Assembly (NCBI RefSeq): GCF_029227855.1
Contig: NZ_CP074356.1
Source: Escherichia coli
GTDB lineage: Bacteria; Pseudomonadota; Gammaproteobacteria; Enterobacterales; Enterobacteriaceae
Reading direction: 5' to 3' (one strand)
Length of the DNA: 64,000 nt
A model generated the notes under the pieces. The model was not told the origin of the DNA. It saw nothing but the letters and a program-made list of their open reading frames with translations, and did not search any database. A program made the position numbers and the translations under genes. Position 1 is the first letter of the stretch. Each line of letters begins with the position of its first letter. Below, one piece after another: positions 18,977 to 26,590 of this stretch.

Positions 18977-19194
18977 CAGCTTTTCCTTACAGAGGGTGAA
19001 TAAAAAAGCCGGTACCCACAAATGTGGATACCGGCAGGTACAAAACAGCATGGTCAGATAAAGTGGTTTTTCCCGGACATAAATGCTTCCCCTCTCTCAT
19101 CCGCCAGAGAAGTATCAGTCCGTTGTGTGCAATTCCGTTCTGCATGATGAAGAGATTCAGCTGCCTTTTCGCAGGCCATTAACCACTATAAACG

Positions 19195-19230
19195 ATCGAT
19201 AGCAACGATCGATACCTGTTTTATCGATCG
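19195..19230. promoter_or_regulatory. three clustered GATC sites upstream of agn43 (Dam/OxyR phase-variation switch)
   Basis: GATC at 19195, 19208 and 19227 in the leader region of flu; the arrangement matches the known agn43 switch. Confidence 0.6.
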
Positions 19231-19347
19231 TTTTATTCTATTGATTACAAGGCGGTCACGCAAGAGAAACAGGAGGAGTATGAGGGGTTTGTGTCATGTT
19301 TTCAGTTGGTTAACGTAATGTTATCAGGCATTTCCCTGGCAGACTGT

Positions 19348-22406: not shown

Positions 22407-23024
22407 TCAGTTGCGGCTATCGTCAACCGTTGTGCGGTATGCCAGGAGCACGTACTGATCCATCAGATCCGTCAGTGCTGCGCTCTGCCTCTGACGGTTG
22501 ATGATCCATTCCTCCAGCTCTTTTTCTGATTTCCGTTTCAGGTTCTCTTTCCAGTCTTCAAGGCTGTTTCCGGTCATTAAATCAAGCCAGCAAAGCCAGA
22601 CCAGTTTGAGGCGCAACTCCGTGCCACCAAACTGACGGAAGAGGCTGATCAGTTTATTTGCCAGAGAACGCTGCCTCAGACGTTCACATTCAGACAGGAG
22701 AATGCCTTCCAGCATCGGATGATGAACCAGCAGATGTTCACTGGTGCATAAATTCACAATCAGATCATCATCCAGGGGCGGCGTGGCCCGTTTGTCAGGG
22801 CCATAAATCAGCCGGTGCAGGCTCTGGGGTACGATGGCAATCTCCGGTTTTTCACCATTGAATGACACCCAACCGGGCGTCAGATTATGGAAGTAGTAGA
22901 TATTCGGATGACACACGCCCCAGGATACGGCGTGCCGGGTGAAGCCGGTCAGCCATTTCTGGTAGCTTTCGTGGAGCCATTCGTAGCGGGTCTGATACTG
23001 TTGTTTCATTTTCATATTCCTCAC
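22407..23024 (-). CDS. hypothetical protein (205 aa)
   Basis: ORF only. Confidence 0.5.
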   Translation of the reverse strand: MRNMKMKQQYQTRYEWLHESYQKWLTGFTRHAVSWGVCHPNIYYFHNLTPGWVSFNGEKPEIAIVPQSLHRLIYGPDKRATPPLDDDLIVNLCTSEHLLVHHPMLEGILLSECERLRQRSLANKLISLFRQFGGTELRLKLVWLCWLDLMTGNSLEDWKENLKRKSEKELEEWIINRQRQSAALTDLMDQYVLLAYRTTVDDSRN

Positions 23025-23103
23025 GGGGATATAACAGGCAGCAGAATGCCGCCGGCAGGCCGGGGATTACGTCTGCTGCGGGTGAACGGATAACGGTCAG
23101 AAA

Positions 23104-23310
23104 TTACGGGCGGGGCTGTGCAATACGCGCCTGTAGCCAGGCTTCCACTTCACTTTTCAGCCAGCGGGAGCTGCGGCCCAGCTTGATGGGAGCCGGAAAG
23201 GCCCCATCCCTGATGAGCCTGTAAAACCACTTATCTGTCAGGCCGTTCAGTTGAGTGATAAATGCCATGTCGACCATCTGGTCATCCATCAGTGAAACTG
23301 GGGTAGCCAT
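23104..23310 (-). CDS. alpA: AlpA-family phage transcriptional regulator
   Basis: 68 aa, …MAFITQLNGLTDKWFYRLIRDGAFPAPIKLGRSSRWLKSEVEAWL…. Confidence 0.7.
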   Translation of the reverse strand: MATPVSLMDDQMVDMAFITQLNGLTDKWFYRLIRDGAFPAPIKLGRSSRWLKSEVEAWLQARIAQPRP

Positions 23311-24538
23311 GAGAATGTTCCTCCGGATGTTGTTAAACCAGCCGGTGTGGTCATGAAAACAGCGCGCCACCTTCACCGGCATAACAACCGGGGAGAAACG
23401 TAAAAAATAATCGGGAATGTGACCGCCAGGAGATAAACGGGGAGGTTGCGGTGGCTGAGCCGTACCGGTATACCGGGTGGTTGTTGCGAAAAGATGCTTC
23501 CGCACGCACGCGCGATAAAGAGGGGATAGTTTTCGTGAGGACAGGGAGAGAAGCAGGCGTTCTGATAATTGCAGAGTTGTTTTCGGAGGTGGTTACAGTG
23601 AGTCAGCCCGTTCCTGGCGAGGAGGAGACTGATATCACCGATGGGATAAGGCTGTCTGATTGGTATTATAAATATAAGAAGTCATCAGAGAGTAACGTAA
23701 AGGATTTGCCAGAGTAAGCTAAGAGAGTAAATCTCTCCGGTAACAGAGCGCTGTGAATCGTTCATGTATCAGAGTGCAGATACATGAACGCTGATGCGTA
23801 AAATCAGCAGTGACACGCCAGCTCCCCCTGTGCCCATTCCTGTATAAGACATGAACTGAGCGTATTAATGCTCCTGCCCTGAGACTGAGCGGTGAGTGAG
23901 GGGCTGAGAAATCCCTCTTGACAATGCTCTAAACCAGAAATACTTCCCCGGTTGTTGCGGTGCGTCCGGATCCCCGATAACGGAACACTAAGGCTGTATT
24001 GCGGGACACCAGGTAAGTGGCAGCCCGTAATACGTCAGGAGACGCGGGAAAAGTGAATTCCCACACGCGTTATAAACTTACCCTTGCGGAGCTGGAAGCC
24101 TTTAACTCTGCCGTTGACAACCGGCTGGCAGAACTGACAATGAACAAACTTTACGATCGCGCGCCGGCTTCCGTCTGGAAATATGTCACCTGAATATTGA
24201 AGCAGCGCTACGATGACTCCGGTGTTATCTGCACCGGAGGACCGGGAACATTAAGCGGTATAGCGACAACAAAGAATTCGAAATCAAAAGGGAATGGTGC
24301 CGGAGGCGTGGGCGGTAATAGGCTGATTTTCAGGTATTACCGGCTTACAACGTGTGGTTGATATTGAGGGGCTGTGAGTTTCGCGTATTTGTCAGAAACC
24401 CAGATGAGTTTTCCTGTATGGGACGAAATAAGGCAGCGGCAATACCTGGAAAATTTAATATGGTATGAAGGAGAACCTGTCGGTTACGCTTAATATACAC
24501 GGTACACTGTCAGCTCAGGGGATACATGAACCGTTATC

Positions 24539-24742
24539 TCACCAGCTACACAGTATACACACACTGACGCTGACAGTAGTCAGCAGGACCACAATAATCA
24601 GCGCCAGCAGTATGGTAACGATACGGTCTGTATTCCGGTAGTAGCCGAAGGGGTCGACAGAACCACAATACGGGCAACACACTGTATTATGAGTAATCGC
24701 GTTTCCACAATCCCTGCACTTCTTTTTGCGTATCACCATCAC
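24539..24742 (-). CDS. small zinc-ribbon protein with C-terminal transmembrane helix (67 aa)
   Basis: CRDCG...CPYCG followed by a hydrophobic stretch. Confidence 0.35.
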   Translation of the reverse strand: MMVIRKKKCRDCGNAITHNTVCCPYCGSVDPFGYYRNTDRIVTILLALIIVVLLTTVSVSVCILCSW

Positions 24743-24901
24743 TCCCTCCTCACAGCCTTACCCGTAACCGGTTTTTTACATTAAAAAACGACGCTGAAAA
24801 TTCAACCGTCAGTCCGGAGACGACCGTTCGGGTTATCACAGAGTGCCTGAGACAGTGTCCTGCCGGAGGTCACTTCAGGGACTCTGCGCATTTTTTACGA
24901 C

Positions 24902-25507
24902 GTGGCTATTCCGTATGAACCATACGGAGATTTAACCATGACCTACAAATACAACCCCTTCTGGCAGCAACGTATTCGTGAGACGGTGCGGCACGCACTG
25001 AATGTTCATCCCCGCCTGACGGCATTGCGGGTTGACCTGCGTCTCCCGGATGTACCGGCAGCAACGGACGCAGCTGTGATATCCCGCTTCATCAATGCCC
25101 TGAAAGCCCGAATCGACGCTTACCAGAAACGTAAGCATCGGAAAGGTAAACGCGTGCATCCCACCACCCTGCATTACGTCTGGGCCCGGGAGTTTGGGGA
25201 GTTCAAAGGTAAAAAACACTATCACCTGATGCTGCTGGTCAACCGGGATACCTGGTGTCGTGCCGGTGATTACCGCGCTCCGGAGTCTCTGGCCGGGATG
25301 ATTAAACAGGCGTGGTGCAGTGCCCTGGGAGTGGATGTCGGGTGCCATGCCACGCTGGTGCATTTTCCGGCCTGGCCGGCGGTGTGGCTGGCGCGTAATG
25401 ATGACACCGGCTTTCAGCAAGTGCTGGAACGTGCTGACTATCTGGCGAAAGAGCATACCAAAGCTCACTGCACCGGTGAGCGCAATTTTGGCTGTAGCCG
25501 GAGTTGA
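24902..25507 (+). CDS. YagK/YfjJ-family (inovirus Gp2-like) protein
   Basis: Family resemblance recalled from memory; start may be the internal ATG (MTYKYNPFWQQ). Confidence 0.5.
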   Translation: MAIPYEPYGDLTMTYKYNPFWQQRIRETVRHALNVHPRLTALRVDLRLPDVPAATDAAVISRFINALKARIDAYQKRKHRKGKRVHPTTLHYVWAREFGEFKGKKHYHLMLLVNRDTWCRAGDYRAPESLAGMIKQAWCSALGVDVGCHATLVHFPAWPAVWLARNDDTGFQQVLERADYLAKEHTKAHCTGERNFGCSRS

Positions 25508-25760
25508 GCACGACTGGCGCGCCAATATCCGGCAAACCAAAAGTATGGGTTGTTGTCTGGCGGCAACGATGTATCCACTCGCCCACTGACTGTTTTTTAC
25601 GTCAGTGTTCCATTGTGTGACAACCACAGTGCTGTAACAGCAACCAGCCTGCTTTACCCAAACTCCAGTCCAGATTTTAACTGAACCGCCATTCACACCC
25701 TGACCACGCTGCCCGTACCGGGACGGCTGTTGCCTGCGTGTCGTCTGGCGGCTAAGGAAT

Positions 25761-26168
25761 ATGACTATGTACGCAAAATCCTTTATCGCTCTTGATGGCA
25801 ACGGACGTCTGACGGGCGCCCGTACTGCACAGGACGCACCTTATGCTAACTACACCTGCCACTTGTGTGGCAGTGCACTCAGATACCATCCGCAATACGA
25901 CACTGAACTTCCCTGGTTTGAACACACTGACGACAGGCTGACAGAGCACGGTCAACAGTGCCCTTATGTCAGGCCGGAGCGCAGAGAAATACAGTTGATT
26001 AAACGTCTGCAGCAATTCGTATCGGATGCCTTACCCGTGGTGCGTAAAGCCAGCTGGCACTGCAGACAATGTCACCACGATTATTATGGGGAGCAGTACT
26101 GCACACACTGCCAGACCGGAGGATTCAGTATTCCCCGGACAACTCAGGAGGAAATATGCGAATTCTGA
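25761..26168 (+). CDS. cysteine-rich putative zinc-binding protein (135 aa)
   Basis: CHLCG ... PWFEH ... WHCRQCHHDYYGEQYCTHCQTG. Confidence 0.5.
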   Translation: MTMYAKSFIALDGNGRLTGARTAQDAPYANYTCHLCGSALRYHPQYDTELPWFEHTDDRLTEHGQQCPYVRPERREIQLIKRLQQFVSDALPVVRKASWHCRQCHHDYYGEQYCTHCQTGGFSIPRTTQEEICEF

Positions 26169-26590
26169 ACTGTTATATGGCGAATGACAGCAAAGGCCAT
26201 TTTGTTACGGCGAAAGAAGCTGCGAAGCACAACCGACAGGACGTTTTGTGCTGTGTGTCCTGTGGATGCCCGTTAACACTTCAGCGGGGCAATGACGGAC
26301 AACCACCGTGGTTTGAACATGACCAGATGACTGTCGCTGAAAAAATCCTGCTGCGATGTACCTGGCTTGACCCGGCGGAGAAAGAGGCCCGTCGTTTGCA
26401 TCTGCAGGGCATGACGGTTCCGGATTATACGGTGAAGGTGAGAAAGTGGTTTTGTGTGATGTGTGACGAAGATTATGAGGGGGAAAAGTGCTGCCCACGC
26501 TGCGGTACCGGGGTATACAGCAGGGCGTGGGGGCGGCAGGAGGTGCCGTCGGAAGATGCCAGGGCTGATAATCCGTTACAGAGGCTGTAA
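26157..26590 (+). CDS. cysteine-rich putative zinc-binding protein, tandem paralog of the preceding gene
   Basis: CVSCGC ... PWFEH ... WFCVMCDEDYEGEKCCPRCGTG; start at MRILNCYMAND overlaps the upstream stop. Confidence 0.5.

Follow-up and report, generated by a model that had tools for sequence, protein, structure and literature searches.

Zinc ribbons of the generic kinds (Zn_ribbon_3 PF13248, DZR PF12773, Zn_Ribbon_1 PF13240, zf-ChsH2 PF12172 and DUF2116 PF09889) are often found N-terminal to a membrane helix. Among the small membrane proteins of bacteria some of those characterised are encoded on prophages or plasmids, and the 2025 review of the group does not mention zinc at all (PMC12648545). 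There is also DanI (UTI89_RS27595, WP_001298030.1), a 69-aa zinc-finger antagonist of DanR encoded on the leuX island of UPEC UTI89 (bioRxiv 10.1101/2025.06.10.658900). We discuss here a small gene for a protein with a predicted zinc ribbon and membrane helix, in a window of 64,000 nt of Escherichia coli DNA (RefSeq assembly GCF_029227855.1, contig NZ_CP074356.1), to which all positions refer unless another locus is named (Table 1). The published annotation of the SRL island goes from orf39 (YfjJ-like) to orf40 (Hha) and omits the gene (PMC6980539), and searches of the literature and supplements by accession and by peptide, and of the Sakai Ribo-seq small genes, found no experimental report of it.

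Table 1. Features of the small gene, of its surroundings in the window, and of sister-family genes on conjugative elements (positions in the last two rows are those of the loci named)
Feature	Position	Strand	Remarks
Small-protein CDS	24539..24739	-	66 aa + stop, ATG start; matches the position of the RefSeq CDS in M217 and E24377A
Shine-Dalgarno AGGAGG	24745..24750	-	5 nt upstream of ATG; read from sequence
N-terminal domain, residues 1-39 (predicted cytoplasmic)	24623..24739	-	basic MVIRKKK, zinc ribbon, linker DPFGYYRNTDR
Zinc ribbon C8-x2-C11-x10-C22-x2-C25	24665-24718	-	motif
Transmembrane helix, residues 40-62 (23 residues)	24554..24622	-	hydrophobicity, AF2
Uncharged four-residue periplasmic tail LCSW	24542..24553	-	predicted; 1-4 residues in all variants
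Stop codon of small gene	24539-24541	-	
Divergent intergenic region, small gene to Gp2/YagK-like gene	24740..24937	.	198 nt; highly conserved in five diverged copies
Palindrome GTTTTTTAcatTAAAAAAC	24771-24789		inverted repeat I5 or I6; AT-rich
Palindrome TCCGTATGaacCATACGGA	24910-24928		inverted repeat I5 or I6; directly upstream of Gp2/YagK-like gene
Inovirus Gp2 / YagK_YfjJ_C family gene, 189 aa	24938..25507	+	divergent; Pfam PF11726, E=4e-48
Two tandem DUF7828 + Zn_ribbon_11 genes	25761-26168, 26156-26590	+	Pfam PF25165, PF11682
Hha/YmoA-family gene	24017..24193	+	convergent, 345 nt from the stop of the small gene; Pfam PF05321, E=1.5e-17
Sister-family gene L020	5001-5219	+	Shigella flexneri plasmid NZ_CP024475.1, IncFIA/MPF_F
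Further sister-family genes	L014 5001-5219; L012 5001-5237; L015 3002-3181		lone opposite-strand ORFs in conjugative-element operons

The original prediction placed a small membrane-anchored zinc-ribbon protein in an ORF at 24539-24742 with the motifs CRDCG and CPYCG followed by a hydrophobic segment, and an uninterrupted ORF of that description is present on the minus strand at exactly those coordinates, with 67 aa if counted from the GTG at 24742. Counted from the ATG at 24739 the same ORF gives 66 aa plus stop, with the protein sequence MVIRKKKCRDCGNAITHNTVCCPYCGSVDPFGYYRNTDRIVTILLALIIVVLLTTVSVSVCILCSW, and the ATG is the more likely start. The RefSeq CDS (201 nt, WP_001297219.1, “hypothetical protein”) starts at this ATG in strains M217 and E24377A, and the Shine-Dalgarno sequence is kept as GAGGAGG or GAGAGGG in five aligned island copies. 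Three candidate start codons, GTG-ATG-GTG, follow one another at 24737-24745. The variant-D copy L005 (6001-6006) has ATC in place of the ATG and the following GTG as its sole usable start, so that start-codon use differs between variants. It had also been suggested that proteins of this kind are easily missed, which does not hold for this one: in an even sample of 60 genome matches RefSeq/PGAP annotates a CDS in 53, under the name “hypothetical protein” or “zinc-ribbon domain-containing protein”, and has none in the other 7.

The cysteines of the protein are spaced C8-x2-C11-x10-C22-x2-C25, with the two pairs within CRDCG and CPYCG, and all four are invariant in a superfamily alignment of 25 sequences (A3). 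The most hydrophobic window of 19 residues is at residues 40-58, with a Kyte-Doolittle mean of 2.99. When stop-to-stop segments of at least 50 aa were searched for the combination CxxC...CxxC followed by a hydrophobic 19-mer, a single case turned up over all six frames of the window, and none in 100 triplet-shuffled windows. The N-terminal 39 residues include 7 K/R and the C-terminal tail has no charge; as the positive charges precede the helix and none follow it, the positive-inside rule favours a predicted N-in topology, and a Cys4 zinc site also suits the reducing cytoplasm. There is a single predicted transmembrane helix near the C-terminus with four residues after it and no signal peptide, as in tail-anchored proteins.

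Run on the family alignment, AlphaFold2 predicted a helix at residues 31-65 with confidence but the N-terminus only weakly. With distant relatives added the mean pLDDT was 79.3, and the model has strands at 5-7 and 14-16 (pLDDT about 69-76), which flank the first knuckle as a beta-hairpin, and a helix at 33-65 (about 90). Foldseek found local matches to solved zinc ribbons, at 1.0-1.5 A rmsd over about 23 residues and with every E-value above 1; the fold search of the PDB and of the viral models in BFVD gave non-significant local matches only, all of them zinc ribbons, and an HMM search of PDB sequences gave nothing significant (E>=0.3). No gathering score was reached in Pfam, the best being zf-ChsH2 at 16.4 against 23.2 bits and Zn_ribbon_3 at 13.7 against 27, and no threshold in NCBIfam (best 16.6 against 32). 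Other members of the family likewise score below threshold only, and the sub-threshold matches are all to zinc-ribbon families. Three functionally uncharacterised PHROG families match weakly, and these also have an N-terminal ribbon followed by a helix in longer profiles of 136-178 positions. The reading as a small membrane-anchored zinc-ribbon protein is thus supported by the motif, the hydrophobicity, the AlphaFold models and the pattern of conservation, and we think it probable that the protein is an N-in, tail-anchored inner-membrane protein with a C4 zinc ribbon; zinc binding, the N-in topology and membrane insertion are what we infer from its sequence.

The reading frame, the loss of which in homologous islands had been named beforehand as counting against the gene, is kept in every island variant examined. 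We aligned the DNA of the window with four diverged copies (L005, L007, L009 and the Salmonella copy L010) and estimated dN/dS by the method of Nei and Gojobori. The ORF is open at 64-66 aa in all five copies. Over the whole gene dN/dS is 0.20-0.55, falling to 0.07-0.29 in the zinc-ribbon half (codons 2-39), and the variable columns of the N-terminal half are distributed 9/6/26 over the three codon positions. In the tail dN/dS is 0.4-1.4, but hydrophobicity is kept and the second codon position varies least. There are four tail variants among the relatives while the N-terminal 39 residues are nearly invariant, with residues 1-9, 17-20, 22-23, 32-35 and 37-39 invariant in alignment A1. A constrained ribbon together with a tail that is free to vary but stays hydrophobic is what marks a translated protein whose helix needs only to be hydrophobic. 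Nucleotide similarity between the variants collapses directly after the stop, whereas the intergenic DNA upstream is highly conserved, and a stop at 64-66 aa in four tail variants despite unrelated downstream DNA indicates that the short form is itself maintained. We are confident that the small gene is a real, protein-coding gene.

There are also rare alleles (P0002, P0008, P0026, P0048 and P0053; L016 271-597) with C25R, C25F, C25S, C11S or C21Y substitutions or with frameshifts in the tail; C25 and C11 are ligand cysteines, and C21 is adjacent to a zinc-ligand cysteine. Some copies of the gene are probably decaying, and the approximately 7 of 60 copies that are unannotated or frameshifted, taken with these cysteine-substituted alleles, suggest that constraint within E. 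coli is only moderate.

The window covers a CP4-like island at the tRNA-Leu(CAA) gene leuX (58230-58314), which marks the attachment site, and is collinear with the islands of E24377A and 042 and those of the SRL type, with Ag43, a YeeP-like GTPase, KlcA, RadC, CbtA/CbeA, IS66 and the fec operon. Elsewhere in the window there are a group II intron domain (56328-56414), an ALIL frameshift pseudoknot of IS3 type (53685-53801) and an IS102 RNA match (18995-19231). Across the CP4-like genomic islands of E. coli the small gene is part of the conserved backbone. It is followed across the divergent region by the Gp2/YagK-like gene and then the two DUF7828 genes in 6 of the 7 island loci of the L005-L011 set; the seventh, L008, begins at the small gene, so that the count for DUF7828 covers the other six. 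The two DUF7828 genes are paralogous, overlap by 13 nt and have no PADLOC match. The Hha-family neighbour on the other side is annotated in E24377A and present in most island variants, and a metagenomic contig also has the arrangement of hha-like gene and small gene. Genome counts are alike, with the small gene in 3472 of 5426 genomes and the Gp2-like and DUF7828 gene sets in 3847 and 3821, but this co-occurrence may merely reflect shared island ancestry. In K-12 there is no copy of the small gene beside yfjJ in CP4-57 or yagK in CP4-6, from which it follows that the Gp2-like family does not need it.

With regard to transcription, the minus strand was scanned for a sigma-70 consensus promoter of the small gene and none was found, and no terminator was found either; the putative promoter must lie in the divergent intergenic region. 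This region includes two palindromes. That at 24771-24789 has the form GTTTTTTA-cat-TAAAAAAC and is about 20 nt upstream of the Shine-Dalgarno sequence of the small gene; its core TTAATGTAAAAAAC is invariant across the five aligned island copies, and the palindrome may serve as an operator or form the core of a divergent promoter. The second, at 24910-24928, is perfect (TCCGTATG-aac-CATACGGA), and its 3' arm overlaps the Shine-Dalgarno sequence of the Gp2/YagK-like gene, which has its ATG at 24938. The arms are kept in five diverged copies, and this palindrome could be an operator or a hairpin for translational control. A plus-strand promoter-like site inside the small ORF (24570-24598) was treated as due to chance because it falls in the part of the tail that is not conserved between variants, and an overlapping plus-strand ORF of 58 aa (24465..24641), which runs into the non-conserved 3' flank, was rejected as a gene. 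Downstream of the hha-like gene there is a block of about 58 nt (24242-24299) that is conserved in 4 of the 5 aligned copies, and partly in L009, in DNA that is otherwise not alignable and has no annotation; a plus-strand ORF starting with TTG (24197-24361, 54 aa, Gly-rich) spans it.

The coding sequence is present in about 64% of the complete E. coli genomes counted above, at a median of 2 copies and a range of 1-6, and many E. coli chromosomes have the locus in identical form. The exact protein is on at least 1000 contigs, where its source names include “predicted nucleic acid-binding Zn ribbon protein”. Among 5.8 billion proteins searched there were 75 relatives, and all that have a named source are from Escherichia, Shigella, Salmonella or Klebsiella. 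A scan of the GTDB species representatives by peptide patterns gave 34 pattern matches with none confirmed, which is about what we estimate would arise by chance for patterns of 8 residues in 298 Gb. The island protein itself is in 8 plasmid records, several of them megabase-sized “plasmids”. From the 50,697 phage genomes searched it is all but missing, with only one fragment of 20 residues found.

An exhaustive profile search of 1.84 billion representatives gave 59 matches, of which the strong ones belong to the enterobacterial family described above. Those with weak scores (E about 1e-5 to 1e-3) are proteins of 59-83 aa that share its colinear layout and have the DPFG..R..DR linker in common with it, and two of these relatives have hhalign probabilities of 97.7-97.8% against the island family. 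Contexts were examined for five relatives, and three are inside gene clusters of conjugative elements on the strand opposite to their neighbours, the other two being on very short contigs. When the profile was widened and the databases were searched again, a coherent sister family was recovered, with the pattern M..L..CxDCGK.LS.TA..C..C.S.DPFGKKR..DR-helix and 36-40% identity over 50-56 residues to the island protein, of which these are the nearest relatives. By tblastn it is in 121 plasmids, 116 of them conjugative, mostly in E. coli and Shigella, and it is usually unannotated. In the Shigella flexneri plasmid the gene is on the anti-tra strand and occupies the interval that separates traN from the neighbour of trbC. 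Two diverged copies of the sister family have a dN/dS of 0.10 and differences distributed 14/8/32 by codon position, which indicates that it too is a real gene. The sister family is like the island protein in its layout of zinc ribbon, linker and transmembrane helix, in being limited to mobile elements, in being a lone gene opposite its neighbours and in being under purifying selection, and differs in its length of 72-83 aa, in a longer periplasmic tail (GGLWYTG..D.P..) and in lying inside T4SS operons, where the island gene adjoins the Gp2-like gene. Judged by these sequence comparisons, the island gene is a member of a mobile-element-restricted, uncharacterised superfamily of predicted tail-anchored zinc-ribbon proteins.

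A more distant architectural relative, P0180 (L021 5001-5204), is another E. coli protein of 67 aa with a zinc ribbon and a transmembrane helix. Its gene is between genes for a FaeA-like regulator and an Ail/Lom outer-membrane protein on one side and for an ecotin-like inhibitor on the other. It is not beside a LytTR gene, and its context is uninformative.

For function, we suggest that this backbone island gene encodes a tail-anchored zinc-ribbon adaptor, an account which as a whole is plausible but falls somewhat short of being likely. The basic cytoplasmic C4 zinc ribbon (residues 1-39) would be joined through the linker DPFGYYRNTDR to one C-terminal helix, with about 4 residues in the periplasm. 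The ribbon would bind a specific cytoplasmic partner that belongs to the element, be it protein or nucleic acid; the helix would hold that partner at the inner membrane and so modulate its activity, making the protein an adaptor or a sequestering factor. As a speculation, a candidate for the partner is a product of the divergent operon of Gp2/YagK-like and DUF7828 genes. Constraint is tight on the ribbon and linker and loose on the helix, and there is almost no periplasmic tail, which favours an adaptor or sequestering factor, but the mechanism taken by itself is tentative. A wider reading, which we hold with more doubt, is that the protein and its plasmid sisters are an undescribed mobile-element family of the Enterobacteriaceae and related bacteria with a dedicated mobile-element role. 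That role might be to couple the Gp2-like initiator on islands, or the T4SS on plasmids, to the membrane, or alternatively to switch such functions off when the surrounding operon is silent, in which case the placement on the opposite strand would provide antisense control.

Several other explanations have to be weighed against the adaptor reading. The protein could be a small membrane toxin or addiction factor resembling the type I toxins, in which the helix would damage or depolarise the inner membrane on loss or silencing of the element and so stabilise the island or plasmid, with the zinc ribbon gating or regulating toxicity. It is a small hydrophobic protein with a single helix of loosely constrained sequence, confined to mobile elements, on an island that already has other toxin-antitoxin genes in CbtA/CbeA, and the sister genes are lone ORFs opposite tra/conjugation operons, so that the operon transcript would be a built-in antisense RNA. 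However the strongest selection is on the predicted cytoplasmic ribbon, a domain absent from the known type I toxins, and no known toxin family (Hok/Gef, Ldr, TisB, Ibs, ShoB, Fst and others) was found in Pfam and NCBIfam scans at E<=10. Nor did any Rfam family, antitoxin RNAs included, match at the locus (23000-26000 at E<=1, and the whole window at gathering score); on the opposite strand the sole consensus promoter is the one in the non-conserved part of the tail, the 3' flank is not conserved, and the RNA fold of the 5' region of the gene is unremarkable (z=-1.9). We therefore think a toxin unlikely. The protein could instead regulate a membrane protein or complex by contacts between helices, as MgrB, AcrZ and MgtS do, with the ribbon as a cytoplasmic sensor or accessory. 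Most characterised bacterial small membrane proteins act in this way (PMC12648545), and residues L44, L47, L52, V58, S59 and L63 are conserved in the helix, while the plasmid sister family is inside T4SS gene clusters. This reading too is improbable here, as the helix is the least conserved part of the protein and four quite different tails coexist in E. coli, the conserved positions are not significantly clustered on one helix face (p=0.14), and the periplasmic tail is of just 1-4 residues.

Small inner-membrane proteins encoded by prophages and islands can exclude phages, and CP4-type islands often carry defence genes, such as abpAB and rnlAB in CP4-57. Phage exclusion, here by a block to phage DNA entry or the triggering of abortive infection, was one of the roles that the original prediction suggested, the other being regulation. 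The only match of the protein in PADLOC (PADLOC-DB v2) is to Cas12f at E=0.25, which is noise, and of six neighbours the Gp2-like, both DUF7828, Hha and 200-aa proteins have none and the AlpA-like protein two weak ones (E 0.002 and 0.005). The near absence from phage genomes argues against exclusion, as does the position in the conserved backbone beside replication-like and regulatory genes and not in a variable cargo hotspot, and with almost no predicted part outside the cytoplasm the protein could hardly meet incoming phage components. We found no support for phage exclusion and consider it very unlikely. Finally the ORF could be non-functional, either a by-product of conserved regulatory DNA for the Gp2-like gene or the decaying remnant of a longer zinc-ribbon membrane protein: its 5' half adjoins the highly conserved intergenic control region, no promoter has been located, the PHROG relatives are longer, and frameshifted and cysteine-mutant alleles exist. 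However, the predominance of third-position substitutions and dN/dS values down to the lowest given above would be unexpected for regulatory DNA, the stop is at the same length in all four tail variants with unrelated DNA downstream, and the independent plasmid sister family carries the same signature, so that this is very improbable indeed.

At present the small gene is a well-supported but ordinary “conserved hypothetical”, carried by roughly two in three complete E. coli genomes and with relatives that lie, without annotation, in the transfer regions of F-type plasmids. If it is true that the protein tethers or silences a function of the element at the membrane, then a zinc-ribbon class would join the few small membrane proteins that are understood mechanistically, and this might partly explain the control of CP4-like islands and conjugative plasmids.

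In comparison with known systems, the sequence is already public as a hypothetical protein and has no characterised relative. DanI, which came to our attention through a literature match to DUF2116, is like the small protein in being a small C4 zinc protein encoded on a leuX island, and as it binds and inhibits the product of a neighbouring gene it is a precedent for the idea of an adaptor or antagonist. However, it was rejected as a relative: the hhalign probability is 4.5% over 21 columns and the two are not homologous, DanI is soluble with no transmembrane helix, and its neighbour is a LytTR regulator and not a Gp2-like gene. MgrB, AcrZ and MgtS and the type I toxins Hok, TisB and Ldr share with our protein the size class, the single helix and the inner-membrane location (here predicted), but none of them has a cytoplasmic zinc ribbon or any sequence similarity to it. 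With the generic zinc ribbons listed at the outset the small protein shares two CxxC knuckles 10 residues apart and a predicted beta-hairpin, with a transmembrane helix after the ribbon. It differs in that it has its own linker, ends directly after the helix and is below the curated thresholds, and most of the named zinc-ribbon relatives carry a further extracytoplasmic domain (as in the longer PHROG profiles) that it does not have. Some RefSeq, UniRef and IMG records already use the name “zinc-ribbon domain-containing”, and it is with such generic membrane proteins that the small protein can, loosely, be filed.
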